Positions 26,951 to 41,092 of a stretch of 44,970 bases of DNA are shown one piece after another (positions within the stretch are counted from its first letter, which is position 1; each line of letters starts with the position of its first letter). The notes below the pieces were generated by a model. It was not told where the DNA came from. It made no database searches and saw only the letters and a program-made list of their open reading frames with translations. Made by a program: the position numbers and the translations under genes. The DNA comes from Escherichia phage vB_EcoP_C. The stretch is taken from the sequence record NC_047807.1. The stretch is one strand, 5' to 3'.

Positions 26951-27069
26951 TGGACCACCAGTTGTGCTCTAACACAATCCATAATGTAACGCTTCACTTC
27001 ATCTACGATTAATTCTTCGTGAGTCTTAGTCACCTTCGGAGAAGAAGGCTTGAGAATCATCTCAAGCAT
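26947..27069 (-). CDS. Small hypothetical protein (start uncertain)
   Basis: ORF-track frame; track start is TTG; internal ATG with GAGGG SD chosen. Confidence 0.3.
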   Translation of the reverse strand: MLEMILKPSSPKVTKTHEELIVDEVKRYIMDCVRAQLVVQ

Positions 27070-27079
27070 CTCCATACCC

Positions 27080-27295
27080 TCAAATGAAATCGTCGGTTTC
27101 TTCTTCGTCTGTACCATAGAGTTCTTCAACCTTCTCTTGGATAGCTTCTACAGAAAGACCAAGCTCTTCTGCATCAGCTAGTAAGGTATATGGCACTTCC
27201 ATGCCACAGGATAAAGTTTCAAAGATAGCTTCTGCTACCTCAACTGCACGAGTTGCCTTCATGCTATCAAAAGAAATCTGGTTCATCTTTGTCAT
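27080..27295 (-). CDS. Small acidic protein (71 aa) with acidic C-terminus ...EEETDDFI
   Basis: ORF track; GGAG SD; strongly acidic. Confidence 0.5.
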   Translation of the reverse strand: MTKMNQISFDSMKATRAVEVAEAIFETLSCGMEVPYTLLADAEELGLSVEAIQEKVEELYGTDEEETDDFI

Positions 27296-28214
27296 GTCTT
27301 AATTCTCCAGCTTTGGGCAGACGAATGTTGCCCTTGCTTGAATCCTGAAGACCTTTTACTTCAAAGATTTTACCAATGACATTCAATCGTCCACCGTGTT
27401 TAATATCGTGGAACATCTGTTCTGCATCTGCATGAGTCCACCCTTTACCTAACATAGCTTTGATTGTCTTTCCTCCTTTCCATTTGAAAATGAGGTTAGC
27501 TACCTTACCTTTGTACTTACCTTTGCCTTCTTCAAAGCCAATACAAGTAAGGTCATAAGTTACCTTACGGACTTCTTTAGTCTGACGATAACCTTTGTGG
27601 CCTGCTTCATAATCACAGTCCAGTTTAAACACAGCACCCTCTCGGCCTGCGTCTATTTGCTCTTGCGCAAACGCTTCAACTTCTCGCTCATTATGGCAAG
27701 GAGTAATAGGAAGGATAGCGTTGTACCCGCTAAGATGAGCGCCGATGCGACGATGTAAAGCATCGTAACGTTTGAGATAAGAAACATCAGTGAATCCATC
27801 ATGGAATGCCTTAATAGTTAACATATCGAAGAAGTCAATATACAGGTTGTCTTTAATCTGCTGGCCTATGAAATCAAGTGGCTCTGTGCGATTAGGGTTA
27901 ACTACTCCAGAAAGTGCTTCAAGGTAGACATCAACAGCCATAGATTGCAACTCACCGAGATAAATGCCAGTAGGGAAAGCTGAATAAGATTCTTCCAAGG
28001 TTTCCGTGTTAGCCAGTTTCTTTCCAGTGCGTCCAAAGACACCAACGACACCATCGTTGCGAACAACCACAGCACTAAATATCCCATCTCGTTTTACCTG
28101 TGCATAACATGGAAAAGTTAATTTCTTCTCAGGTACTTCACCGCGATGTTTCACCAGCATGAATGGGTGATTGCGGTGGTCTTCTGGAAGACCTAGGAAT
28201 TGGAAGATATTCAT
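27267..28214 (-). CDS. ATP-dependent DNA ligase (T7 gp1.3-like), 315 aa
   Basis: Ligase motif I KxDG (CYAQVKRDGIF); AAGGAGG SD; C-terminus DKDEPDFF. Confidence 0.85.
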   Translation of the reverse strand: MNIFQFLGLPEDHRNHPFMLVKHRGEVPEKKLTFPCYAQVKRDGIFSAVVVRNDGVVGVFGRTGKKLANTETLEESYSAFPTGIYLGELQSMAVDVYLEALSGVVNPNRTEPLDFIGQQIKDNLYIDFFDMLTIKAFHDGFTDVSYLKRYDALHRRIGAHLSGYNAILPITPCHNEREVEAFAQEQIDAGREGAVFKLDCDYEAGHKGYRQTKEVRKVTYDLTCIGFEEGKGKYKGKVANLIFKWKGGKTIKAMLGKGWTHADAEQMFHDIKHGGRLNVIGKIFEVKGLQDSSKGNIRLPKAGELRHDKDEPDFF

Positions 28215-28384
28215 TTCACCTCCTTCATCACACCTTTAACTATTGCCTCTTTAAAGTATGCTAAGTCAGAACCATAGGCACTTAGGAACCACATTGCACC
28301 TTCATCATTGGAGGTCAATACAAAACCAAGAGGGCTTACTCTATATAAGTTACCGAAGTACCCTCTATATAGTTTACCTTCCAT
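28211..28384 (-). CDS. Small hypothetical protein (about 57 aa)
   Basis: ORF-track frame; start moved to ATG with GAGGA SD. Confidence 0.35.
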   Translation of the reverse strand: MEGKLYRGYFGNLYRVSPLGFVLTSNDEGAMWFLSAYGSDLAYFKEAIVKGVMKEVK

Positions 28385-28385
28385 A

Positions 28386-28856
28386 TTAAATATCCTCATC
28401 AATACATTCGTGACGATGCTTCTGGAATAGCTCTTTGTAGTAGTCTGCTTTCTTCAGATCTTCTTCCGTGTTGAATTTCTTCCCTGCACGCAGACGATAC
28501 TTCAAAGCATTACCCATGCAATATCCAGCAAATTGCTTCTCGGTCATACTACGAGCAATGATAGTGATTGCCTCTACCCCATCGAAGAACTCGTAGTGCT
28601 TAGGCTTAGTAACCATATTGTTGTCCAACGTGCTAGGATCTTCACCTTGCAATGAGTCAACAACCTTGAAGTAAGGTGCATACCATTCGCGCTTCTCAAC
28701 ACCTTCTAACATGATAGAGTTATAATTAGGTTCTGCACGGGATACTTTGAATACCCCATCTGGTTTCTTGTCTAGGCTTTCACACAGTTTATTCCAGATG
28801 GCATCTCGGTAAGCTGCACGGCGTACGACGTATTCGCCAATATAAATCTTTGACAT
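28386..28856 (-). CDS. Conserved hypothetical phage protein (about 156 aa)
   Basis: Start moved to ATG at 28856 (GGAGG SD); C-terminal block KPKHY...GNALKYRLRAGKK resembles a widespread small phage domain (recalled, unverified). Confidence 0.55.
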   Translation of the reverse strand: MSKIYIGEYVVRRAAYRDAIWNKLCESLDKKPDGVFKVSRAEPNYNSIMLEGVEKREWYAPYFKVVDSLQGEDPSTLDNNMVTKPKHYEFFDGVEAITIIARSMTEKQFAGYCMGNALKYRLRAGKKFNTEEDLKKADYYKELFQKHRHECIDEDI

Positions 28857-28907
28857 AATTAATTCCTCCATTCACTATACAATCAAGGGCAAGCTAATAC
28901 CTACCCT

Positions 28908-28930
28908 TTGTTCTATAGTGTCAACTAAAT
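28908..28930 (-). promoter_or_regulatory. SP6-type phage RNAP promoter (ATTTAGTTGACACTATAGAACAA)
   Basis: Promoter family member overlapping the phosphoesterase stop codon. Confidence 0.7.
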
Positions 28931-29932
28931 CTTACCAATCCAGCGATTGTCATTATTGGTCTGCATCGGGACAATGTGCGGCACACCCTCCAGAATAACC
29001 ACACAACCTAATGCTGGCTTGTATTTGGACTCACGACCATAGGCAAATGCACGAGATGACTCATCAATCAAACAGCCTCCCTGCACAGCCCAATACTGTT
29101 CATGGGTGTTACGTGCATACTCCACCGACATCTTCCCATGCAAGTGACCACACACTAAGTTCATGCGCTCATGTGCTGCATCTGCTAGGACAGCGCCAGC
29201 AGGTTGATGCTTGAACGCCACCTGCTCACCATTAGGTAGCTCAAGTACATGCGTATGCTGCCAGTCCCACTGGTCGCCACCTCCCTGCGGGAAGAAGACT
29301 TCACGGTATGTGCGCAGGTATTGCACAGGGATGCCATGAGCACTGGCCTTACGGAAATGTAAGGAGCCATGATTAGAGTGGCAGATGCGCATTACAGGGA
29401 ACATCTTATGTAATTTACGCATGAAGATACGAGCCTTCTCTAACTCCATACCAGCCGAATCCAGATTAGGATCTGACGTATGGAATGAAAGTGCGTGCTT
29501 GTCCGCCTCATCACCAAGATGAACTACAGTGTCTGGACGGTAACGTGCTGCCACCGCTGCCAGAAACTCTAATGTATCTGGATGCTCATAAGGTGCATGG
29601 GTGTCAGGTATTACCAGTACACTTCGATGAGGCGAGTCAGGCAATGGTACAATAGCCAAATCCTCGTAGCGGTCAGGAGTCCTGAGCTTACGTTCTTCTT
29701 TGATAGCACGGTTCGCAATAGCCAAGGTTTCATACGCCTCGCCATTCTTCTTCCGCTTTTCAAATTGTTTGGCCCAATACTTTGCAAGCTGCCTTGTAAC
29801 TGTAGTCCCGTGTGTGTTATCTGAGAGAATAGACGCCATTAGGCGATAGTTGATAGTGCCATCATCCCGCTTTGCACTTTCAACTGCTTCTTCTACCTCC
29901 TTATTAGTAAACAAGTTTCTAATCTTACCCAT
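28925..29932 (-). CDS. Calcineurin-like metallophosphoesterase, about 335 aa
   Basis: Motifs DTH, GDEAD, SNHG, GHLH in canonical order; ATG overlaps HNH endonuclease stop (TAATG). Confidence 0.7.
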   Translation of the reverse strand: MGKIRNLFTNKEVEEAVESAKRDDGTINYRLMASILSDNTHGTTVTRQLAKYWAKQFEKRKKNGEAYETLAIANRAIKEERKLRTPDRYEDLAIVPLPDSPHRSVLVIPDTHAPYEHPDTLEFLAAVAARYRPDTVVHLGDEADKHALSFHTSDPNLDSAGMELEKARIFMRKLHKMFPVMRICHSNHGSLHFRKASAHGIPVQYLRTYREVFFPQGGGDQWDWQHTHVLELPNGEQVAFKHQPAGAVLADAAHERMNLVCGHLHGKMSVEYARNTHEQYWAVQGGCLIDESSRAFAYGRESKYKPALGCVVILEGVPHIVPMQTNNDNRWIGKI

Positions 29933-30363
29933 TATTCTTTCCAAACCCTCCCGCTTACAATATCACTAATGGTAGCAGGTGAGACATTATATAGCTTAGC
30001 TAGTCGTAACCTCTCACCTTTCTTATTAGCAACATATGTTGCCCTGATAGCACGTACAACATCCCAAGTTAGTTTAGCACGATTATTATTTTCTCCTGCA
30101 AAGCTAGCACGTCTGCCTCGATCTATCATATCTTGTATGTTGTCCTGCTGTGTACCAGATATTAAGTGTGCAGGGTTTATACACCTTGCATTATCACAAG
30201 TGTGTCTAATCACTACATCCTTTATATCCTCTATAGAAAGGCCGTGGTGCTCTGCATAGACCACGCGATGAAGTAATTGTAACCTCTTACTAGGTTTATG
30301 CCACGACCTGTAGTAACCTAATTGATTTAAGCATTTATAATGCCCGTGGTCTATACAGTCCAT
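29932..30363 (-). CDS. HNH homing endonuclease, free-standing (about 143 aa)
   Basis: HNH block HHGLSIEDIKDVVIRHTCDNARCINPAHL plus C-terminal HTH-like tail; start moved to ATG at 30363 with AAGGAG SD. Confidence 0.8.
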   Translation of the reverse strand: MDCIDHGHYKCLNQLGYYRSWHKPSKRLQLLHRVVYAEHHGLSIEDIKDVVIRHTCDNARCINPAHLISGTQQDNIQDMIDRGRRASFAGENNNRAKLTWDVVRAIRATYVANKKGERLRLAKLYNVSPATISDIVSGRVWKE

Positions 30364-30364
30364 A

Positions 30365-30766
30365 TCATACTCCTTTCTTTCTTGCATAAGCAAGGCGTGC
30401 CTTACGGTTCTTAGCCTCGCGCTTCTCTGCCTCCGTTTGATGTTTGTGATATAACTTATCTGTCTGAGGCGTACTATGTAACTTCCAGTATTCATACAGT
30501 CGTTCTAACCATTGAAGCTGGAAGTAACGGTTATTACCTGCCTTGCCATAACCAGAGATAACACCCTTAATCTTCCCTTCCGCACCATTGCAGCCTCGGC
30601 ATACAACAGCGCGGCAGAATCCTGTCTCATGGTCATGGTCAAGTACACGGTTTACAGGTGTGACAGCTTTGAGACTGCCGCCACACAGAGGGCATTTCCA
30701 GCCTTGCTTATCCAGCAATTCCTTCTTATAAGCTGCCACCTCCGATGCTTTTAATTTGCTAACCAT
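30365..30766 (-). CDS. Endonuclease VII-like junction-resolving nuclease, 133 aa
   Basis: Cys-rich zinc site (CPLCGG...CRGCNG) and DHDH motif typical of the T4 endonuclease VII family. Confidence 0.7.
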   Translation of the reverse strand: MVSKLKASEVAAYKKELLDKQGWKCPLCGGSLKAVTPVNRVLDHDHETGFCRAVVCRGCNGAEGKIKGVISGYGKAGNNRYFQLQWLERLYEYWKLHSTPQTDKLYHKHQTEAEKREAKNRKARLAYARKKGV

Positions 30767-31779
30767 TCCGCATCATCTCCCCACAAGATTGGGTTCTTAT
30801 CGGCTCGCCATATATCACCTTTGAATCTAGCCATGTGAGCTAGGCGACCACATTCAAGCATCAGGTCAAAGGCTTTGCCGATACGATAACCACCTCGGTA
30901 ATTCTTAATCTTAACTTGTCCATGCCCGAACTTAGCCTTGTAAGCACCCAGCACTGCCATGTACAACTCTTTCTCTGTCTTACAATCTTTGAGAAGATCA
31001 TAGGCATATTTAGCACCACGACCTGGTATGCCAGCATAGTTATCAATATCATCACCGATAATCATCTGTGCATAGTGGAACATGAGGCCAGCACCTTTTA
31101 GATCTTTGACTTGCCCATTAGCCTTACGGCGTAGCTCAAGCCAGCCCATAGGCTCTACCCACTTCTTCTCTTGACCCGGCTGTAGATGCCAACCGGGAAC
31201 AATCATCAAATCCTTATCCAAGGAAACGATGCAAGTATCAGAGAATGCTTTATGCTCTGGACTACCGATAGGGAACTCGTTACCTGTATCTTGCTGGAAG
31301 CGGCGGTGGCTGTCCCATTGTGCGATACTCATGAGGTCGTCTGCTTCCTCTCCATCTGCCAAGATTGCACCGTGAACCTCTAAGAGATGCTCTCGCAATT
31401 CATAGAAGAATGGAGGCTTCTCGGTCTTACGTTGGCCTTTATAAGGCTTGGTGAATGCTAGGCGGACACGGAAGTTAGCTTCTGATTTCGTCATGAATAA
31501 CTTAGCTGCATCACATTCTGCTGCATACACCCAAGAGTTAAGCAAGGAGTTCACACGGTCACACGCTTGCTTACACTCAGGCGTATCTTTGATTGATGGG
31601 ACTTGTCCTGACTTAACACGAGTTGTGGCTCGTACATAAGTCATGTCGCTGATTGTATACGCGACGATGTAAGGCAACATATCGGCATCTATTAAAGCGA
31701 TTCGATTACCTTCAGTCGGCCACAGGATGAGATTATTGTCTTCCGATACTGTAGCTCCGAAGTCGAAGTTTGGTCGCAT
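30751..31779 (-). CDS. 5'-3' exonuclease (T7 gp6-like, FEN family), about 342 aa
   Basis: Recalled similarity to T7 gene 6 exonuclease; start moved to ATG at 31779 with AAGGAG SD. Confidence 0.8.
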   Translation of the reverse strand: MRPNFDFGATVSEDNNLILWPTEGNRIALIDADMLPYIVAYTISDMTYVRATTRVKSGQVPSIKDTPECKQACDRVNSLLNSWVYAAECDAAKLFMTKSEANFRVRLAFTKPYKGQRKTEKPPFFYELREHLLEVHGAILADGEEADDLMSIAQWDSHRRFQQDTGNEFPIGSPEHKAFSDTCIVSLDKDLMIVPGWHLQPGQEKKWVEPMGWLELRRKANGQVKDLKGAGLMFHYAQMIIGDDIDNYAGIPGRGAKYAYDLLKDCKTEKELYMAVLGAYKAKFGHGQVKIKNYRGGYRIGKAFDLMLECGRLAHMARFKGDIWRADKNPILWGDDAEWLAN

Positions 31780-31964
31780 GTAGGCCACTCCTTCAAGAAG
31801 GAGGACACCGCATCATGGAGGTTCTGTCTTAACCAATAGTCATCCCATTGTCTCACCTCCACTAGCTTCTCACCAGTTTTGTAATCATAGGCAACCCCAA
31901 TATACTGTCTGGTGATTGCATTGTAGCTAATGTCCAGTTCAATTCGAGATTCAATAGTCGGCAT
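31692..31964 (-). CDS. Hypothetical protein (90 aa) overlapping the exonuclease start by about 88 nt
   Basis: ORF track; GGAG SD; 3' third overlaps exonuclease out of frame. Confidence 0.45.
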   Translation of the reverse strand: MPTIESRIELDISYNAITRQYIGVAYDYKTGEKLVEVRQWDDYWLRQNLHDAVSSFLKEWPTCDQTSTSELQYRKTIISSCGRLKVIESL

Positions 31965-32081
31965 AATTCATTCTCCAATAACTATTACGCAAAAGACCCT
32001 GCCTACACTAAGGCAGACAGGGCATTAGATGAGGTGAGCGTGATAGTCAACTAGGACTAACAGAGGCTACACCTGCTATTA

Positions 32082-32453
32082 TCAAAACTCTTCCTCTTCG
32101 CTAACCGGAGCTTCCGGTGCAGACACTTCTACTGCCGGAGCTTCAGCTTCTTCAGCAGCTTTAACTTCTTTCACTGGTTTACCAGCAGCAATCCAATCCA
32201 GATATTCAGCTACGATGTTAGCCTTACCGATCTGGGCTTTGTCAGCCTGCTCAGGGAAGCAAGCACGAGCGAACTCCAGACCATCAGCGAAGTTACCCAT
32301 GCTGTCAATCTTAGCCTGAGCTTCTTCACGGGTATCGTAAGCCTTAGTACCAGCTACCAGTTGATCAGCTTCATCAACGATAATGAAAGACTCAACGGAT
32401 ACCAGAGCAGCACCTTTAACAACACGGTTTACGATAGTTTCAATCTTGAACAT
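32082..32453 (-). CDS. Hypothetical protein with acidic C-terminal tail ending ...SEEEEF (123 aa)
   Basis: AAAAGGAG SD; directly downstream of promoter 32504-32526. Confidence 0.6.
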   Translation of the reverse strand: MFKIETIVNRVVKGAALVSVESFIIVDEADQLVAGTKAYDTREEAQAKIDSMGNFADGLEFARACFPEQADKAQIGKANIVAEYLDWIAAGKPVKEVKAAEEAEAPAVEVSAPEAPVSEEEEF

Positions 32454-32503
32454 ATTAAATTCTCCTTTTGTTGGTTATGGCATTATCGCCGATTAAAATT
32501 CTT

Positions 32504-32526
32504 CTCTTCTATAGTGTCCAGTAAAT
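32504..32526 (-). promoter_or_regulatory. SP6-type phage RNAP promoter (ATTTACTGGACACTATAGAAGAG)
   Basis: Promoter family member; intergenic. Confidence 0.75.
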
Positions 32527-32541
32527 ACCGGACACCGATTT

Positions 32542-32557
32542 GTCTCACACGTGAGAC
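32542..32557. repeat. Perfect 16-bp palindrome GTCTCACACGTGAGAC
   Basis: Copy of GTCTCAC-NN-GTGAGAC; about 15 nt upstream of promoter 32504-32526. Confidence 0.8.
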
Positions 32558-32558
32558 T

Positions 32559-32777
32559 TTATAAAACTGTGTTCACCTGAGCAATGTCATGCGCCGGAAG
32601 CGATACGCCGTGGCGTTTCCCCGTAGCTGGGTCGCTGTAGTTCACCACGTGCTGTCCGTCGCGCCAGATGTAGTGCAGGTCGGCATATGTGTCCCCTTCA
32701 GAGAAGGAGTGAAAAGTGTTGCCGCCAAGAGTTGTAATTCCTTTCTTGCAGTGCAGGGTTACGATTTGTACTTTCAT
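32559..32777 (-). CDS. Hypothetical protein (72 aa)
   Basis: ORF track; strong TTAAGGAG SD. Confidence 0.55.
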   Translation of the reverse strand: MKVQIVTLHCKKGITTLGGNTFHSFSEGDTYADLHYIWRDGQHVVNYSDPATGKRHGVSLPAHDIAQVNTVL

Positions 32778-32786
32778 CCTTTCTCC

Positions 32787-33593
32787 TTAATATTCCGCGT
32801 CCTCATCCATCTCCGGTGCAGGAGTATCTTCTGCTTCAGGTACTTCCTGTGGAACAGACTCACCAGTATCCAGAGATTTACGATTAGCTGGGGTAGCATC
32901 TTCCTCGTCTTTCTTCTTAGCCTTCTTCCATTCAGGGTCTTCTTCACGAGCAGCTTTGATAATAGCTTCTACGTGAGAGCCAGCAACAGACAGGTTCTTA
33001 CCACGAGGTGTCTCGTTCAGGAAGTATTGACGTACCAAGTTAGCTGGGATGTCATCAAGGATTTCTTTGGTCAGCTTGTCGAAGGTGATATGACCTGTCA
33101 TAGACAGACCTTCCTCTTCTACCTGAGCCAGTACAAGCTTCTTCAACTTATCAGGCATACCGCCAAAGCCTTTCCAGTTAACATACTTGAAAGTACCATC
33201 ATCATTCTTGTCGCCAGAGCCAACCATAGTTGCAGTCAGACATTCACCGATAAAATCATCGAAGCCACCCAGCAACTCTTTAGGGTCAACTGCATTCAGG
33301 AACTTAGTCAGTGTTGCCTTATCACCAGACTTCAGAGGCACAGCCATCCATTGTTCCATGCGAGAATCATCTTCATTCTTATCGTCGTCACCCATCAGGA
33401 TAATCTTAACAAGAACAAAGTTTGCTGGCTTCTTAACTTCAGTGGTATTACCTTTCTTAAAGATATCTTGGAAGGAACCAACATGAATGATGCCAGAGAT
33501 TACTGCTTCATGATCACCAACTTCAGGGTTCTTAAATACTTTACCTTCAGCTTTAGTAACCTGAGCACCAAAATCAAAATCACCACGTGCCAT
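32787..33593 (-). CDS. Candidate ssDNA-binding protein (acidic C-terminal tail ...EMDEDAEY), 268 aa
   Basis: Position in replication module; acidic tail ending in an aromatic residue as in T7 gp2.5; primary sequence not obviously gp2.5-like. Confidence 0.5.
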   Translation of the reverse strand: MARGDFDFGAQVTKAEGKVFKNPEVGDHEAVISGIIHVGSFQDIFKKGNTTEVKKPANFVLVKIILMGDDDKNEDDSRMEQWMAVPLKSGDKATLTKFLNAVDPKELLGGFDDFIGECLTATMVGSGDKNDDGTFKYVNWKGFGGMPDKLKKLVLAQVEEEGLSMTGHITFDKLTKEILDDIPANLVRQYFLNETPRGKNLSVAGSHVEAIIKAAREEDPEWKKAKKKDEEDATPANRKSLDTGESVPQEVPEAEDTPAPEMDEDAEY

Positions 33594-33650
33594 TTATTTA
33601 GTCTCCTATTGTTACACTACACAATCATAGGCCGAACTAAGCCGACCTAT

Positions 33651-33673
33651 TGTTCTATAGTGTCCAGTAATTA
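33651..33673 (-). promoter_or_regulatory. SP6-type phage RNAP promoter variant (AATTACTGGACACTATAGAACAA)
   Basis: Promoter family member overlapping the stop of the upstream gene. Confidence 0.7.
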
Positions 33674-33970
33674 CTTATGAACTACCTTAATACGTGCAAT
33701 AGTATCGAGAGGGTAGACATAACTAACACATTCACCATCTTCAACCTCTTGTACATTTACACTAGCCATAGTGTCACAAAGTGAAAGGCTCAATTGATGA
33801 CAAGTTTCACCTTGAGTAAACTCTGGACCACGATAGGCATCTGCTTGTTCCACAGTAGTGATTGCTGTATCGTCTTCTTTAGCCAGACGAGTGTGACCTG
33901 CAACTTTACGCTGCTCTAGATCACGAAAGATGATACCTACATGTTTAGCTTGAATCACTTCTTCCATCAT
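33671..33970 (-). CDS. Hypothetical protein (99 aa)
   Basis: ORF track; AAGGAG SD. Confidence 0.55.
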   Translation of the reverse strand: MMEEVIQAKHVGIIFRDLEQRKVAGHTRLAKEDDTAITTVEQADAYRGPEFTQGETCHQLSLSLCDTMASVNVQEVEDGECVSYVYPLDTIARIKVVHK

Positions 33971-33976
33971 AACTCC

Positions 33977-34354
33977 TTATTTAGTCAAGTTGTCCAGTTC
34001 TATTTCCAGCATAACAATCTCTTTCTTCAGGCTGTCAGATGCAGCTTGATTTACAAGAGCAATTGATGCCTTGTTCTCTTCAAATTCAGCTTTCAGGCTG
34101 TCACGCTCTTGCTGGTGACGTGCCAGCATATCTTCTACCTCTTTGACTTGACGTGCATTTAGTTCATCACGAGATGCATAGTAGCGGTTATGACAGTCAA
34201 TCATTTGAGAACTACGATGTTCTTCAACTTTAACTTGCTCTGCCTGTACTGCTTCGATGCGAGCCTCAATAGCTTTGATAGCCTTGGACTTGAACTTATT
34301 AGCAAGACCACGAAAGTATTGAGCCACGAATACCAGAGTAGTTACCATAGACAT
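33977..34354 (-). CDS. Hypothetical coiled-coil protein (125 aa)
   Basis: ORF track; AGGAG SD; heptad-like charged/hydrophobic pattern. Confidence 0.6.
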   Translation of the reverse strand: MSMVTTLVFVAQYFRGLANKFKSKAIKAIEARIEAVQAEQVKVEEHRSSQMIDCHNRYYASRDELNARQVKEVEDMLARHQQERDSLKAEFEENKASIALVNQAASDSLKKEIVMLEIELDNLTK

Positions 34355-34418
34355 ATTTATATCTCCTATATTTATTTAATTACCTATACTACCTTATAAA
34401 CCTAGATTACCTAGGCTT

Positions 34419-34441
34419 TCCTTCTATAGTGTCCAGTAAAT
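34419..34441 (-). promoter_or_regulatory. SP6-type phage RNAP promoter (ATTTACTGGACACTATAGAAGGA)
   Basis: Promoter family member; intergenic downstream of DNA polymerase. Confidence 0.75.
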
Positions 34442-34509
34442 CATGTTAGACTAAATAAGTAGGAATAAGTTATTCATAAAGGCCACTCGTAAGTGACCTT
34501 GAGTATAAC

Positions 34510-34608
34510 TCAGTCGTAGTTACCATCACAATCTGGGTCAATGCCAGAGAAAGCCCAGAATACTACCATAAATAATATGACTCCAAGAATAATAAAAGAT
34601 GCCTGCAT
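34510..34608 (-). CDS. Tiny membrane protein (32 aa), translationally coupled
   Basis: Hand translation MQASFIILGVILFMVVFWAFSGIDPDCDGNYD; ATG overlaps preceding stop (TGATG). Confidence 0.3.
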   Translation of the reverse strand: MQASFIILGVILFMVVFWAFSGIDPDCDGNYD

Positions 34609-34724
34609 CAATCGTAACCCTCCTCTTCATCAGGTATATCTAATCGCATACTTCCATAGCAAGCAAGCATAAGGAATATAAGAAAGAAAGTGGAGAATAG
34701 GCAAACAATATCAAACCTGTCCAT
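34608..34724 (-). CDS. Tiny membrane protein (38 aa), translationally coupled to DNA polymerase
   Basis: Hand translation MDRFDIVCLFSTFFLIFLMLACYGSMRLDIPDEEEGYD; ATG overlaps DNA polymerase stop. Confidence 0.3.
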   Translation of the reverse strand: MDRFDIVCLFSTFFLIFLMLACYGSMRLDIPDEEEGYD

Positions 34725-37270
34725 CAGTGTGTTTCCTTCCAACTTGCACCAATCTTATACTCACCTGCCATCGGACAACGCATCTTCAGGTACTGACCCG
34801 CCCAAGTCATTGCGTCGGCAATGATATGCCCTGCACGGTGATAGCGACGCTGGCAATGAAGTACACCAGCATCAGCATCAACGCTAACGAGATTTGCAGC
34901 AGACCACATACGTCCTTCAGAATCCACATGAACACGTTTCTCCTCTGCATCGAACACTGCTTTCACAGCAGCCTTCTCTGTTTCGAACCCTTCTAAGGTG
35001 AAAGGCAAGTCGTAGTTGAGATACAAGACCTCATCTTCAGGGACTTCCATCTGGATTTCATCGTGCACGTTAGCTATACCGCAAGGGTTTCCCATGCTAT
35101 CTAAGGCCACACCTTCCTTGCGCATCACTGCAAACGCCCTGACCAATGCGTATTTCATACACAGAGAACCAGTCATCTGGAGTAGTACGTTAAGCATAGT
35201 GTGCTCTTTAAGTTCACCACCAGACATACGGATGCGACCCCAATGACCATCAGGTGCTTGTAGGTAGCCAAACTTGTTACCTTGTGCGATAACATTCTCA
35301 CGAAGACGTGCAAGAGATGGTAGTTCAACCTCAAATCTTGCCACAACTTCCTCCATTTCTTCCTCAGTAACACCACATACTGCTGCAAGGTTAGCTATAC
35401 CAGACCCATATAGGAAGGCATATATAAATGTCTTCGCCATGTCACGCTTAGGAAGACCAGCCTTCATTTGATTATGGGTGTGAATGTCACCATGCAGTAC
35501 AATATCTTGATATTCAGGGTCATTCATGAAGTGAGACAGTACACGTAGTTCAAGACCAGCACCATCACAACCAAGGATTAGCTTACCTTTACCGGCTATG
35601 AATAAATCACGTAAAGGATACAAACCACGGGCAGGAATATTAACCACGTTACGATGACGCATACGGAACGTAGAAGTTCCAATACTAATAGCAATAGCTG
35701 GCACACGCCATTCTCCGTCATCCTTGTCTGACGTAGGCCAGCATCCGTACCTTTCGTAGTATTGCTGCGCATTGATTCCTAACTCCTTGTTAAATGCTAC
35801 AGGTACAAGGCCGCGACACTTTCGTATACCAGCTTGCGAAGGCCACACCCCCTTCTGGTCGAAGGCTTCAACGTCACCACGGTTGAGGATCTGACCACGA
35901 CGGGATACGAGTATGTACCATGCAGCGATACCCAAGCACCAATCAGGGACTGTTTTACCTTCACGTGCGGCTCTCTCTTGCCATAAAGTAAGGGACTTTT
36001 CATTTATCTTCCCACTCCAAGGCTTGGGTAATACGCCATGCTCATCGAGATGCGCTTGCTCGGTATCGTTAAATTCAACACCTTTCCATCCATAATCATA
36101 GAGCACTTGCTTAACTGTATCCCTGTTACCCAAGGGAATCTCTTCGAAAGTAACAGGCGAGTAAGCGCCAATCCACTTGATGCTTGGCGTGTCATTACGG
36201 TTTCCTCTAAGGTGAGGAAAGTCTTTCTTGACGCTAGCCGACCAATCACCAGACTTAGTAGTGACACTCCATACTGTCTTGCGATCTCCTCGTCTCTCGG
36301 CATGAAGAAAGTGTGAGGGGTCAAGGACAGTAGGTATATTGTTGCTAGCTCCATACTCATTTGCGCGTTGGCATACTTCATTCTTTTCTTCCGGTTTAAA
36401 AGGTTTAGACTTGATACGCATAGGCATGTGCGGACGGAACGCTGCGACTGTCTCATCAATCTTAGCGTCCAATTCCTCGCATCGTGCTAATGCTTTATCT
36501 ATATCCAGACGGAATCCACGCTCGGCCTGACGGCTCATCTCCAGCGCCACAATGGACTCCATGTGGAAGGCTGTCTCAATACCTAGGCCAGTGCGTTTAT
36601 TCACGCCACGGCGTTTGTGCTCCGTCCATTCTCCGTTAAATAGCCAGAGGAATAGGTCACGGCCTATCGCCACGTCCTCGCGTACACGATGTACCATGTG
36701 GTCAGTTAGTTTAGACCAATCCTCGTTCTCCGGCTTATAACGGCCTATACGAATGCCGTGCGCCTCAATTGAGTGAGGGGCTACGTTACCCATGCCTTTG
36801 GCGTATGCTTGCGGAGGGAGGCGTCTATCGGGGTTTAACAGGCGACTCATGACCAGCGTATCCATGACGCGTACCGGACACAGGTCAGCGCGGAGTCTGC
36901 CCTTGCCGCGTCTCTCGGTATAGTTAAAGCCTTTCCAGATATCAGGGAATGCTTTCTCAAATAGAAGGCCGTCGTACCCTAGGAAGTTCTGTGAGACGAT
37001 GGCTTCGCAGTGCTTAAGGAAGTTAACACCGTCAACCAATGTTCCATCTTGATGGCCTTCCCATTCTTTTAGGCGTTCTCTTGCTTCAGGGTCACGCATC
37101 TCGTATGGGTCAAAGAAGAGGAACTCCTCTGTAGTAAGCAAATCCATGCAGCAAATGATGTGCACATCTTCGCGGTGGCCATATCGGATAGCATCCAGCA
37201 GGCCTTTAGCCTCAGAATCCATCACTAAGATGCGGCCTTCTGCTTCCTTCTTCCAATCAATTGATTTCAT
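34724..37270 (-). CDS. DNA polymerase (T7 gp5-like family A), about 848 aa
   Basis: Pol A motif B region (KTFIYAFLYGSG) and 3'-5' exonuclease N-terminal region; track start is TTG, first ATG at 37270 has GGAG SD. Confidence 0.9.
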   Translation of the reverse strand: MKSIDWKKEAEGRILVMDSEAKGLLDAIRYGHREDVHIICCMDLLTTEEFLFFDPYEMRDPEARERLKEWEGHQDGTLVDGVNFLKHCEAIVSQNFLGYDGLLFEKAFPDIWKGFNYTERRGKGRLRADLCPVRVMDTLVMSRLLNPDRRLPPQAYAKGMGNVAPHSIEAHGIRIGRYKPENEDWSKLTDHMVHRVREDVAIGRDLFLWLFNGEWTEHKRRGVNKRTGLGIETAFHMESIVALEMSRQAERGFRLDIDKALARCEELDAKIDETVAAFRPHMPMRIKSKPFKPEEKNEVCQRANEYGASNNIPTVLDPSHFLHAERRGDRKTVWSVTTKSGDWSASVKKDFPHLRGNRNDTPSIKWIGAYSPVTFEEIPLGNRDTVKQVLYDYGWKGVEFNDTEQAHLDEHGVLPKPWSGKINEKSLTLWQERAAREGKTVPDWCLGIAAWYILVSRRGQILNRGDVEAFDQKGVWPSQAGIRKCRGLVPVAFNKELGINAQQYYERYGCWPTSDKDDGEWRVPAIAISIGTSTFRMRHRNVVNIPARGLYPLRDLFIAGKGKLILGCDGAGLELRVLSHFMNDPEYQDIVLHGDIHTHNQMKAGLPKRDMAKTFIYAFLYGSGIANLAAVCGVTEEEMEEVVARFEVELPSLARLRENVIAQGNKFGYLQAPDGHWGRIRMSGGELKEHTMLNVLLQMTGSLCMKYALVRAFAVMRKEGVALDSMGNPCGIANVHDEIQMEVPEDEVLYLNYDLPFTLEGFETEKAAVKAVFDAEEKRVHVDSEGRMWSAANLVSVDADAGVLHCQRRYHRAGHIIADAMTWAGQYLKMRCPMAGEYKIGASWKETH

Positions 37271-37475
37271 AGATTGCTCCAAAGTATTTAACCCTATAAC
37301 CAAGTCCTAATAAAGAATTAGGTGTTAGATGAGGATAGTTATATGCTAATTCATTGTGGTACTTATCAAACAAAGCAGCCTCTTTCTTAGACCTGCAATG
37401 CCCACACTTACCATCAATACGACTGCGATAACCTTTACCGCAAGAGCAAACCTTACTGACTTTAATAGCTTTCAT
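37257..37475 (-). CDS. Small Cys-rich (zinc-finger-like) protein, about 72 aa
   Basis: CxC...CxxC pattern (VCSCGKG...CGHCR); start moved to second ATG with GAGG SD. Confidence 0.5.
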   Translation of the reverse strand: MKAIKVSKVCSCGKGYRSRIDGKCGHCRSKKEAALFDKYHNELAYNYPHLTPNSLLGLGYRVKYFGAIYEIN

Positions 37476-37569
37476 ACATTGCCTCTGTTTCGTAGTAGTC
37501 ATCTGAACGTTCAGGTTTTGAGTTCATTGAATCTTGGAAATCCCAATCAGAATCATAATCACGTGGCAT
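37462..37569 (-). CDS. Small acidic protein (35 aa)
   Basis: Hand translation MPRDYDSDWDFQDSMNSKPERSDDYYETEAMYESY; strong GGAGG SD. Confidence 0.35.
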   Translation of the reverse strand: MPRDYDSDWDFQDSMNSKPERSDDYYETEAMYESY

Positions 37570-37600
37570 AATGCACCTCCAATCAATATGATGAAAGGCT

Positions 37601-37616
37601 GTCTCACGTGTGAGAC
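37601..37616. repeat. Perfect 16-bp palindrome GTCTCACGTGTGAGAC
   Basis: Copy of GTCTCAC-NN-GTGAGAC; intergenic. Confidence 0.8.
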
Positions 37617-37626
37617 AACCCTTTAC

Positions 37627-37836
37627 TTATCGACTGCGTGTTACAGTTAATTTCTGGCCCATGTATTTGCCTTGGTGTGGCTCCCAAGTTGCCTCTTTGA
37701 TAACTTGCTCGCGCGTCAGGCTATTCTTCTTGGCCTCAGCCATAGTTAACTGTGCGAACAGGAAGGCTTGGTTAGTAATCTTGGCTTGCAGGTCTTCATG
37801 ACCATCGAACATTTTAAGACTATGTTTATTCTGCAT
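37627..37836 (-). CDS. Hypothetical protein (69 aa)
   Basis: ORF track; ATG start. Confidence 0.5.
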   Translation of the reverse strand: MQNKHSLKMFDGHEDLQAKITNQAFLFAQLTMAEAKKNSLTREQVIKEATWEPHQGKYMGQKLTVTRSR

Positions 37837-38044
37837 GTTTCACCATAAAGCTGCCGATTACATTAAACTCCTCACGGAACTCTTTTTCAGTCAAATGACC
37901 GAAAAGTTCCATCTGAAAACTTGCACTAAGACTGGCACCTATTAATGCAAACCCCTTTGAAGTACCATAGGGCTTAACACCATCTGGTGCTACAACTGCA
38001 TAGCATTTATGAGGTCCACGCATATAAATTAATACCTTAGTCAT
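37826..38044 (-). CDS. Hypothetical protein (72 aa)
   Basis: ORF track; strong TAAGGAG SD. Confidence 0.55.
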   Translation of the reverse strand: MTKVLIYMRGPHKCYAVVAPDGVKPYGTSKGFALIGASLSASFQMELFGHLTEKEFREEFNVIGSFMVKHAE

Positions 38045-38054
38045 GATTAACTCC

Positions 38055-38738
38055 TTAGATATTCACGTATGTTTCTTCAGTAACGATAGGTAGGTACAGT
38101 AATTCTTCACCATTTAAGATGTGAAGACCTTTCAACCCTTGCTTACGAATAATGCCTTCTATAGTGTCGGCAAAATGCTTATTAATTACACGTCGTTGCG
38201 TACCTTGTTCTGTGATTGCATGGTCAACATCCATGATTCGCACAGGTACATTTGGATGCATCATGGCTTCTCCAATCTTTACCATAGCTTGTCCTGTGGA
38301 TTTACCCAATGCACGAGTATTAAACTGTGTAACACCTAATGCAGTGCCACATTGCTTAATCATCTCACTTTGAGTCTTACCAGTGATTACATTGCGACGC
38401 TCTTTCTTGAGTGTGGTTTTCTTTTCTGCCATGTACTCTGCTAGTGTTTGAGGACCAGCACCATAATAAAGAGGAGCTAGGAAATTCTTAAGCATCTGGC
38501 GAGCACATTTATCGCAAACCTCATCATGTATGCACTTACATTGATTGTTTATCTCTACAATCTTTTCAAGATATTTATGTGCTGTCTTCTTGTGGTAATA
38601 TTGCTTAACACCACTGCGATATTCTACATAATACAGGTTCTCACCTACAAAGGTTACAACACCACGGCAAAGATAGCGACTTGAAACTTTCTTGATGTTG
38701 CGTACAAAGTCACCTACATTCAACACTAAGTTATACAT
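38055..38738 (-). CDS. Hypothetical protein with Cys cluster (about 227 aa)
   Basis: ORF-track frame, start moved to ATG at 38738 (GGAG SD); CKCIHDEVCDKC cluster. Confidence 0.6.
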   Translation of the reverse strand: MYNLVLNVGDFVRNIKKVSSRYLCRGVVTFVGENLYYVEYRSGVKQYYHKKTAHKYLEKIVEINNQCKCIHDEVCDKCARQMLKNFLAPLYYGAGPQTLAEYMAEKKTTLKKERRNVITGKTQSEMIKQCGTALGVTQFNTRALGKSTGQAMVKIGEAMMHPNVPVRIMDVDHAITEQGTQRRVINKHFADTIEGIIRKQGLKGLHILNGEELLYLPIVTEETYVNI

Positions 38739-38777
38739 AATCAATCTCCAGTTATTTAATGTACTTAATAAGAGCCT

Positions 38778-38793
38778 GTCTCACAGGTGAGAC
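38778..38793. repeat. Perfect 16-bp palindrome GTCTCACAGGTGAGAC
   Basis: Copy of GTCTCAC-NN-GTGAGAC; intergenic. Confidence 0.8.
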
Positions 38794-38810
38794 AAGCCCT
38801 GATAAATACA

Positions 38811-38972
38811 CTAGATAAGGCGTGTTACAATAAAGAACATTGACATAAGAAAACCAGATGCAACGATAAGTTTCACAGCTTTCTTGAATCCATATCGTGC
38901 AGCATAATCTGCGATCACAAGCATGAATAGGATCTCAATACCGATATTCAATACTGGTTTAATAATTTCCAT
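38811..38972 (-). CDS. Small membrane protein (53 aa), translationally coupled to primase/helicase
   Basis: Hand translation MEIIKPVLNIGIEILFMLVIADYAARYGFKKAVKLIVASGFLMSMFFIVTRLI; ATG overlaps helicase stop (TAATG). Confidence 0.45.
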   Translation of the reverse strand: MEIIKPVLNIGIEILFMLVIADYAARYGFKKAVKLIVASGFLMSMFFIVTRLI

Positions 38973-40960
38973 TAAAACTCCTGTTCATCGTCAAAGGTTG
39001 TCTCTTCTATAGTGTCCGGTAAATCAGGTACTTCTTGTTGCCTTGCTTCACCTGTATCAAATGACTTAGTACGGGCTTGTGGTTCTAGCAGTCGGCCCGT
39101 AGCGATGTCACCCTTAAGCATAATCTTAGTACCAGAGTAAATCCCTTGATCCCTATCTTTAACACAGGAAATATAGGTAGTAGTTCGCTCATCTAGTGTC
39201 TCTGCCCTCGTGTTCCTTTCGATGCCCAAGGCATATGATGCCCAAAAGCCGATAGCGCCTGAGCCTCGGAAGTCAGAAAGGATAACCTCGCCACCTTCTT
39301 CGTGTTGGGTACGGTTTGCCGGAGGACGTGTAAGGTGAGAGACAAGGAATATAGTAACTGGGTGTCGGTCTTTGATAGTACCAATCCGCTTGACGCATTC
39401 ATCAAGTGCACCAACCTTCCCACCAAAAGCACGCTCATCTAATTTAATCCCCGTTAAGTTATCAATGATGATATTAGAAATGCCCATAGCCTCAAACTCT
39501 AGGCAAGTTTGCTCTACCTTCTCCATAGAATAGTCGCCTTCTAGGTCAGCCACAAATAGCTTTCCTGTATCAGCCACATAATCAATGGCAGCGTTAGCTT
39601 CTTCCTCGGTGTAGTCGAACACCTCACGGTATCCGTCTTCTTTCGGGTCGTTGGTTGGCGGTAACTCAATACGCTTATCAATCCACTTGCCGATAAAAGC
39701 ACGGGACACCTTGACCATTGGGTCTTCTGTAGAAATGATGCCTACAGATTCACCGTGTTCTTCAATGAGGTGCTTAACCACTTCGCGAAGGAACTCAGTC
39801 TTACCTACACCAGAGCCTGCACCTACAATGATAAGCTGGTTCTTACGAATACCTAGCGTTACCTTGTTCAGCTTAGGCCAAGGCCATGATAACCCTTGCT
39901 CTGGACGTGCAGCCTTGAGCTTATCCCTTTGAGATGCGATAGATTTAATCTGGCTACCAAAGACTTCATCAGATGACTTGGCATTAAACCAAGCATCAAC
40001 AAACTCTTTAGCCTTGCCAGCCATCAATGCCTTGTTAGCATCTTTGCAACCAGAGGGATATTCGAGGATGTAGGATTTGCCAGGAAACAGGCGAGCAGCT
40101 TGTTGGTTCTGCTTCTGCCCTACCTCATCCCCATCAAAACCCCATATAATCTTCTTGAATTGGGCGATATGCTCACGGTTCTGCACTATCTCTTCAAGGC
40201 AAGACTCGCCTTTGTTGACAGACCATACATGGTATGGCTGGCCTTCCCACTTAGTACCCTTGGCAGAATCAAGGAGCATCTGCTGCGCTGCTAGTGCATC
40301 AAGTTCACCACCTACAATAAGCAAGCAATCCTTTCGTCTCCCCTTGTCTAACACGTGAGACAAAGTATTCATACCGAAAAGATCTTGCATACCAAAGAGT
40401 TTACCTAAATGACCAAACTTAAAATCTTTAGGTAATGTGCGACACTTAGCGCCTACTAGCTCACCTTTTTCGAAGCGTGGATAGTAATGCCGTGAGACTC
40501 TACCCTCTTCATCGTGCCCAACACGTACATCATACAATGCGCAAATGTCGCCGCGAATGTGTCTGGAAACAAGGTTCTTACGCTTAAGCGTGAGGAACCA
40601 TTCAACATCAAGTTTCCACTCTGCTTCTTGCTCTGCCCTTTCTTGTTCATTCATGACCTCCCAACGGTCTTTCATACGCATACCACCAAGTGCGATGGCG
40701 CGTAGCTTAGGGTCGCTAATCTTCCCTTCCTTCTCCATCTCTTTAAACTGAGAAGGTGTATATTTGATGTTTCCAGTGATAGGTAACTCTGTTATCTCGA
40801 TGCCACCTTCCGGCTTATGGTAGTAGGGTCTGCCATTATCATGGAAGTGACCACGGTTACAGTATCCTGCCCCGTCGTCAAAGATCATTAAATGATTGCC
40901 AGTAATATCATGTCCGTTCTTTTGGCAAGCAGGACACGGTACATTCTGAATAATAGCCAT
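38972..40960 (-). CDS. DNA primase/helicase (T7 gp4-like), 662 aa
   Basis: N-terminal Cys4 zinc motif (CPACQ...CNRGH), Walker A GAGSGVGKT; acidic C-terminus ...DDEQEF. Confidence 0.9.
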   Translation of the reverse strand: MAIIQNVPCPACQKNGHDITGNHLMIFDDGAGYCNRGHFHDNGRPYYHKPEGGIEITELPITGNIKYTPSQFKEMEKEGKISDPKLRAIALGGMRMKDRWEVMNEQERAEQEAEWKLDVEWFLTLKRKNLVSRHIRGDICALYDVRVGHDEEGRVSRHYYPRFEKGELVGAKCRTLPKDFKFGHLGKLFGMQDLFGMNTLSHVLDKGRRKDCLLIVGGELDALAAQQMLLDSAKGTKWEGQPYHVWSVNKGESCLEEIVQNREHIAQFKKIIWGFDGDEVGQKQNQQAARLFPGKSYILEYPSGCKDANKALMAGKAKEFVDAWFNAKSSDEVFGSQIKSIASQRDKLKAARPEQGLSWPWPKLNKVTLGIRKNQLIIVGAGSGVGKTEFLREVVKHLIEEHGESVGIISTEDPMVKVSRAFIGKWIDKRIELPPTNDPKEDGYREVFDYTEEEANAAIDYVADTGKLFVADLEGDYSMEKVEQTCLEFEAMGISNIIIDNLTGIKLDERAFGGKVGALDECVKRIGTIKDRHPVTIFLVSHLTRPPANRTQHEEGGEVILSDFRGSGAIGFWASYALGIERNTRAETLDERTTTYISCVKDRDQGIYSGTKIMLKGDIATGRLLEPQARTKSFDTGEARQQEVPDLPDTIEETTFDDEQEF
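39002..39024 (-). promoter_or_regulatory. SP6-type phage RNAP promoter (ATTTACCGGACACTATAGAAGAG) inside 3' end of helicase gene
   Basis: Promoter family member. Confidence 0.7.
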
Positions 40961-40963
40961 AAC

Positions 40964-41092
40964 TTAGAACTCCCACGCTGCGCGTTTAGATGCACGGTCA
41001 CGGACAGGTTTATTCAGCTTCTTGCCTTTCTTCTGCCCTTCTTCCATGTCAAAACGGTTAGCTTTACGGGTCATCTTCTCAAAGTTACGCAT
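40964..41092 (-). CDS. T7 gp1.1-like small basic protein (42 aa)
   Basis: Hand translation MRNFEKMTRKANRFDMEEGQKKGKKLNKPVRDRASKRAAWEF; recalled similarity to T7 gene 1.1; GGAG SD. Confidence 0.55.
   Translation of the reverse strand: MRNFEKMTRKANRFDMEEGQKKGKKLNKPVRDRASKRAAWEF

Follow-up and report, generated by a model that had tools for sequence, protein, structure and literature searches.

An acidic, aromatic-tipped C-terminus shared by replication-module proteins of Escherichia phage vB_EcoP_C, a candidate docking motif

Why should proteins of different kinds, encoded in one phage replication module, end in nearly the same few residues? The question arises in Escherichia phage vB_EcoP_C (NC_047807.1). 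Its sequence of 44,970 nucleotides (hereafter the window) represents a whole Vectrevirus genome (Autographiviridae, Molineuxvirinae; the K1E/K1-5/SP6 group), and every gene lies on the minus strand. Over positions 27000-41000 it matches Escherichia phages vB_EcoP_D and vB_EcoP_R at 100% identity and K1E and K1-5 at about 95%; we use the K1E gene names, gp9 to gp25. A sequence-only reading of this region had pointed to five products with acidic, aromatic C-termini and to a precedent in phage T7, which the literature bears out: the acidic tails of T7 gp2.5 and gp4 contact basic patches of the T7 DNA polymerase, among them the front patch K587/K589/R590/R591 (PMC12339929, PMC8472574, PMC10359462). 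The gp2.5 tail also fills the single-stranded-DNA cleft of its own protein and contacts the helicase, and stimulation of the gene 6 exonuclease apparently needs it (PMC12339929, PMC8472574, PMC10359462, PMC4124056). In the window, we found that a conserved tip is carried by the primase-helicase gp9, by gp16, a candidate SSB (a protein that binds single-stranded DNA), and by the small protein gp18, where it may serve as a docking motif for partners at the replisome.

The five C-termini are indeed as first quoted: ...FDDEQEF (gp9), ...MDEDAEY (gp16), ...SEEEEF (gp18), ...DKDEPDFF (the ligase, gp24) and ...TDDFI (gp25). An aromatic final residue had been claimed for all of them and is found in the first four; in gp25 the aromatic residue is penultimate and Ile comes last. 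To measure how far such ends exceed chance, we took 66 non-overlapping minus-strand open reading frames (ORFs) and defined a strict motif (F, Y or W as the final residue, with at least three D/E and no K/R within the last eight) and a loose one (an aromatic residue at either of the final two positions), with expectations drawn from internal 8-mers and, separately, from residue shuffles of each protein. The strict motif occurs three times against 0.21 expected (P = 0.0012), and the shuffles yielded a mean of 0.25 strict matches and never four or more. The loose motif occurs six times against 0.39 expected (P = 3e-6). Motif-bearing ORFs are confined to the DNA-metabolism module at 27-41 kb (6/25 ORFs versus 0/41; Fisher P = 0.002). 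The ligase is excluded by the strict definition because of K310, and the loose set also takes in gp13.5 (...EEEGYD) and gp14 (...DGNYD), two ORFs that had escaped the first reading. When the strict rule is applied to the T7 proteome (52 proteins), it selects exactly gp2.5 (...DEDGDF) and gp4 (...SNDTDF).

The tips of gp9, gp16 and gp18 sit on tails of a common make. The last 20 residues hold 9, 9 and 7 D/E, respectively, and no K/R, and in AlphaFold2 models these tails are of low confidence, disordered or coil, so that all three proteins possess a disordered, strongly acidic C-terminal segment. Each is a flexible, proline-containing acidic linker without basic residues that ends in a free terminal carboxylate; in gp9 the linker makes up the last ~30 residues, with the tip codons at 38975-38998.

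Are these tips maintained by selection? We compared 46 homologues of gp16 from the databases, 120 close gp18 homologues with 25 gp18 representatives at 50% clustering, and 35 IMG/VR loci holding the whole module, to which K1E and ECBP5, a phage of a different genus, were added; tail logos were built from 20 unique tails for each of gp9, gp16 and gp18. The three proteins have in common the tip [D/E][D/E]-x-E-[F/Y]-COOH, retained down to ~30-50% identity: the linkers that precede the tip vary freely and the tip is fixed. Position -1 is F or Y in 18/20 unique tails of gp9 and in 20/20 of both gp16 and gp18, and Glu occupies position -2 in 17/20, 19/20 and 17/20, respectively (53/60). For gp9, E-[F/Y] closes 18 of the 20, and it does so down to 47% identity. 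For gp16, an [E/V][Y/F] end was found in 44 of the 46 homologues and in all 36 loci, down to 31% identity, with the consensus P-x-M/L-D-x-x-x-E-[Y/F]; metagenomic relatives with 31-36% gp16 identity keep the motif. For gp18, the end is E-x-F or E-x-Y in 120/120 close homologues, in 31/31 loci and in 17/25 distant representatives.

Where gp16 identity is ~33%, small proteins at the gp18 position align weakly with gp18 and end in ...SENF or ...AETF; the distant gp18-like protein of one comparison locus, L034, returned only three relatives when used as a query. In ECBP5 the tips read GEF, EEF and ETF, the gp18 counterpart ending in ...EDETF, and in Klebsiella-type loci (L026-L028) all three proteins carry a Tyr tip. 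Phages of Vibrio, Proteus, Pectobacterium and Klebsiella keep the motif equally well, as do metagenomic relatives. Within the tips, synonymous changes (GAA/GAG, TTT/TTC, TAT/TAC) alternate freely, and because such changes keep the tip residues, selection acts on the protein. Conservation in homologues was the check that the sequence-only reading had set for itself, and on this count gp9, gp16 and gp18 stand, the ligase is borderline and gp25 falls away.

What, then, are gp16 and gp18? All annotations examined call gp16 hypothetical, and it has no match in Pfam, in the PDB sequence search or, above threshold, in NCBIfam. Its AlphaFold2 model (mean predicted local distance difference test score, pLDDT, 77; core 80-94) is a beta-barrel with flanking helices, an OB fold, in which residues 1-18 and 228-268 are disordered, the latter forming the acidic tail (32790-32912). 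In the PDB, the best structural neighbour is PrgE, a binder of single-stranded DNA (ssDNA), with RPA, Cdc13 and LEF-3 next. The link of gp16 to SSBs is therefore by fold only, because the sequence searches were null. No second SSB candidate was found in the window, and the model makes gp16, the PHROG 862 family, a candidate for the missing SSB of this clade. The N-terminus of gp16 is predicted to be disordered and yet holds invariant M1, F6, G9 and A10 (motif MAR-FDFGA). Given that PrgE joins neighbouring monomers on ssDNA through its N-terminal tail (PMC11137577), the gp16 motif may by analogy be a cooperativity motif.

In a confident model (pLDDT 87), gp18 folds over residues 1-90 into a beta-hairpin and three helices; a low-confidence linker of Ala, Glu and Pro makes up the rest (residues 91-123; 32085-32183). 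Neither structure nor sequence searches found an informative relative of this family (PHROG 4429). Its globular domain is acidic (net charge -6, isoelectric point (pI) 4.5), and for this reason gp18 is unlikely to bind DNA.

To explain these results, we propose with moderate confidence, and by analogy with T7, that gp9, gp16 and gp18 use their tips as a common motif for docking onto replisome partners, the polymerase in the first place and the SSB cleft in the second. Because the tips resemble each other within T7, and again here, it is simplest to assume one common reader site in each phage. The aromatic side chain and the carboxylate of the tip would enter a pocket that basic residues flank on the common partner, most likely the DNA polymerase gp13. 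In place of the T7 thioredoxin-binding loop, gp13 has a thumb insertion of different sequence (~residues 296-395; 36119-36418), in which R296, K300, K350, K360 and R366 are conserved as K/R across the clade, and we infer by analogy that this basic insertion is a candidate receptor site for the tails. The ssDNA-binding cleft of the SSB would be a possible second site, as for T7 gp2.5. Helicase, SSB and gp18 would then exchange or compete at one site at the fork, with gp18, a folded module of ~90 residues on a leash of ~30, acting as an accessory or regulatory client that is either tethered there or in competition with the others.

We put forward only tentatively a more extended version of this proposal, for the K1E/SP6 clade and its relatives. 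In such a replisome of many clients and one reader, ExE[F/Y]-COOH on at least three proteins would be recognised by one basic pocket, located on the thumb insertion of the polymerase or on the SSB, gp18 would be an unrecognised accessory or regulatory subunit, and the ligase would be drawn to the ends of Okazaki fragments by a degenerate tip. If this is true, gp18 could replace a host processivity or accessory factor, or time the access of helicase and SSB by competition.

Several observations weigh against the docking proposal. The first concerns the receptor. Gp13 and T7 gp5 are 34% identical in palm and fingers, and gp13 does not conserve the front basic patch of T7: BLAST pairs T7 K589/R590/R591 with gp13 G689/R690/I691, and in the MAFFT alignment the T7 loop that carries the patch is deleted. 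For this reason the T7 receptor site is not transferable by homology, and we ruled out a transfer of the T7 docking residues onto gp13 by alignment. The second concerns the SSB: a sequence relationship between gp16 and gp2.5 was not detectable by hhalign, Pfam or PDB sequence search, and the reading of gp16 as a gp2.5 homologue was rejected (hhalign probability 0.04). Residues 20-106 of gp16 give a weak, sub-threshold NCBIfam match to the 'phage replication initiation protein, NGO0469 family' (NF046043; E = 0.0015, 18 bits where the cutoff is 75). The third concerns the tips. That of gp9 has exceptions, namely SP6, where ...QEFNG runs two residues past the Phe, and the locus L036 (...EELI); gp18 is missing from some relatives (L033, L036) and is thus not an obligatory component. 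Covariation of F and Y among the three proteins was dropped as evidence of a common reader, since a single lineage, the Klebsiella-type loci, makes the switch. As for SP6 itself, its gp9 ends in ...TQEFNG and that of a close relative in ...TQEF-stop, through a length change of 2 nt at the stop codon; the extension may be genuine, or it may reflect a sequence difference.

Could the tails work without a shared polymerase site? They might be mainly intramolecular or homotypic DNA mimics, each tail covering the nucleic-acid-binding surface of its own protein or of a sister subunit so as to tune DNA affinity or oligomerisation. The T7 gp2.5 tail is reported to compete with ssDNA in the OB cleft and to stabilise dimers (cited in PMC10359462), a role in keeping with the strong acidity of the tails here (9/20, 9/20 and 7/20 D/E, no K/R) and with the missing front patch. 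However, the acidic domain of gp18 offers no obvious DNA-binding surface in need of a shield, and one common reader would more simply account for three unrelated folds that bear the same ExE[F/Y] tip. Moreover, both roles coexist in T7, so that one does not exclude the other. We regard DNA mimicry as the main function of the tails as rather unlikely.

A mimicry of another sort would be directed at the host. The E. coli SSB ends in ...MDFDDDIPF, and phage tips resembling it might recruit or sequester the partners of host SSB, such as nucleases, helicases, RNase HI and primosome proteins. The P-x-M-D-x-x-x-E-Y end of gp16 does resemble this acidic, aromatic-ended host tip, and the ligase end DEPDFF is similar in composition. 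Against this, position -2 is Glu in nearly all tails and not the Pro of the host IPF, conservation is equal across the phages of different host genera named above and the metagenomic relatives, and T7, the closest precedent, uses such tips for contacts between phage proteins. Host mimicry thus appears improbable. Least plausible by far is that the tips are a non-functional by-product of acidic early proteins, several of which the module does encode, or of downstream purine-rich ribosome-binding sites read as Glu codons (GAG/GAA), as the AGGAG just 5' of the overlapping gp9.5 ATG in gp9 CAG GAG TTT TAA TG might suggest: we largely ruled out such an artefact because more than 100 nt of non-coding DNA follow gp18, the ribosome-binding site downstream of gp16 lies beyond its stop codon, E-F or E-Y is kept in relatives with other downstream contexts and through synonymous codon changes, the shuffles give a mean of 0.25 against three observed, and a ribosome-binding site leaves the terminal aromatic residue unexplained.

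If docking through the tip is the function, how far does it reach? The sequence-only reading had extended the motif to the ligase and two uncharacterised proteins, which holds for gp18, holds for the ligase only in a weak and lineage-restricted form, and does not hold for gp25. The ligase has PF01068 (DNA_ligase_A_M) and PF14743 (DNA_ligase_OB_2) above gathering thresholds, with the OB match stopping at residue 306 out of 315. The six residues DEPDFF (27270-27287) come directly after motif VI (ELRHDK), with no linker, and the last 20 residues, which hold four basic ones, do not form a disordered acidic tail. Vectrevirus and SP6-like phages keep the ending PD[FV][FY] (PDFF, PDVF or PDVY), and some distant loci again have xD[FY] (ADF, PDY or PDF). 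Proteus, PP1-type and Klebsiella-type relatives have lost the aromatic residue (LPDV, ADVE, PDVQ, DADA), an EADL end also occurs among other relatives, and the T7 ligase ends in NPQEKM. Judging from these sequences, the ligase C-terminus may represent the motif in a weak form peculiar to certain lineages. Gp25 (pI 4.05) is simply a very acidic protein: its homologues retain an acidic end (ELYG-DEEE...) and finish variously in DDFI, DYQY, ETDD, ETDY, EAYY, DEDSE or EDEDD, the terminal aromatic residue not being conserved.

Table 1. Tail-bearing proteins of the module, their candidate receptor and small ORFs with similar ends (positions in the window)
Feature	Coordinates	Strand	Remarks
gp9 primase-helicase, 662 aa	38972..40960	-	Pfam DnaB_C and Toprim_2; end ...TFDDEQEF
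gp16 OB-fold protein, candidate phage SSB, 268 aa	32787..33593	-	end PEMDEDAEY
gp18 acidic protein, 123 aa	32082..32453	-	end SEEEEF
gp24 ATP-dependent DNA ligase, 315 aa	27267..28214	-	Pfam; end ...DKDEPDFF
gp25 very acidic protein, 71 aa	27080..27295	-	PHROG 5860, function unknown; ends ELYGTDEEETDDFI
gp13 family-A DNA polymerase, 859 aa	34724..37303	-	Pfam DNA_pol_A; putative tail receptor
gp11.5, 35-aa ORF	37462..37569	-	annotated in K1E; end EAMYESY; possible extra tail-bearing peptide
gp13.5, tiny ORF	34608-34742	-	end ...PDEEEGYD
gp14, tiny ORF	34510-34611	-	end ...PDCDGNYD

Other ends in the module have an acidic or aromatic character (Table 1). Gp13.5 and gp14, both directly 3' of the DNA polymerase gene, keep their endings in close relatives. 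A further near-case absent from the first reading is gp11.5 (...EAMYESY), whose homologues retain a C-terminal MYE[DNS]Y; going by its sequence, this predicted ORF may encode another acidic, aromatic-tipped peptide. Gp10 (38055-38744, minus strand), a basic protein of 229 aa and unknown function (pI 9.3), has a near-terminal PIVTEETYV that is kept in relatives down to ~35% identity, and in ECBP5 a protein of 228 aa encoded just upstream of the polymerase ends in ...DEDLDEIAW. The 5'-3' exonuclease (30751-31788, minus strand) ends in ...WGDDAEWLAN, with a near-C-terminal W-G-D-D-x-x-W kept down to ~66% identity. Of a different nature is an ORF for an HNH homing endonuclease of 187 aa (29932-30495, minus strand; Pfam HNH_3, E = 7e-8), situated between the genes for endonuclease VII and metallophosphoesterase and overlapping the end of the former; it is not present at the corresponding position in K1E.

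The tips give a functional handle on two 'hypothetical' families, those of gp16 and gp18, that are conserved across a large Autographiviridae group used in K1-capsule phage therapy, and if our proposal holds, gp18 is a tail-bearing client of the replisome. The electrostatic tail exchange known from T7 would then be older and more flexible than T7 suggests, working with a non-homologous SSB, another polymerase surface and an extra client. Given that the tip is only 4-5 residues long, peptide binding and point mutants offer a direct test.

In the literature searched, we found no description or biochemistry of SSBs or acidic tails in SP6/K1E-type phages, and comparison turns to better-known systems. 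The [D/E][D/E]-x-E-[F/Y] tip is the K1E/SP6-clade counterpart of the D-x-D-F of T7 gp4 and gp2.5. As in these two proteins, a disordered acidic C-terminal segment ends in an aromatic residue; as in T7, also of the Autographiviridae, helicase-primase and SSB (here the OB-fold candidate) both carry the tail; and within each phage the tips are similar (DGDF/DTDF in T7, EQEF/DAEY here). By analogy, the helicase and SSB tails would be members of the well-studied T7 mechanism class, and the third client, gp18, would be new. The differences lie in the tip itself, DxDF in T7 and ExE[F/Y] here; in its presence on a third, unrelated small protein and perhaps on the ligase; in an SSB candidate that is no detectable gp2.5 homologue; and in a polymerase that lacks the front basic patch and has another thumb insertion.

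PrgE of plasmid pCF10 (PDB 8S4S), an atypical OB-fold binder of ssDNA and double-stranded DNA with a monomer-per-site binding mode, shares with gp16 the extra helices round the barrel and the N-terminal extension. It is only 15% identical to gp16, however, and lacks a long acidic, aromatic-tipped tail, whereas gp16 is twice as long and belongs to the replication module of a lytic phage. The C-terminus of bacterial SSBs (...DDDIPF) is built on the same plan, with a folded domain, a disordered linker and an acidic tip that ends in Phe and a free carboxylate. It differs at position -2, which is Pro there and Glu here (53/60), so that the phage tips are not of the Pro-Phe type, and in its economy: there, one tail serves many partners, whereas here several proteins bear the same tip, and many clients for one reader are therefore implied.

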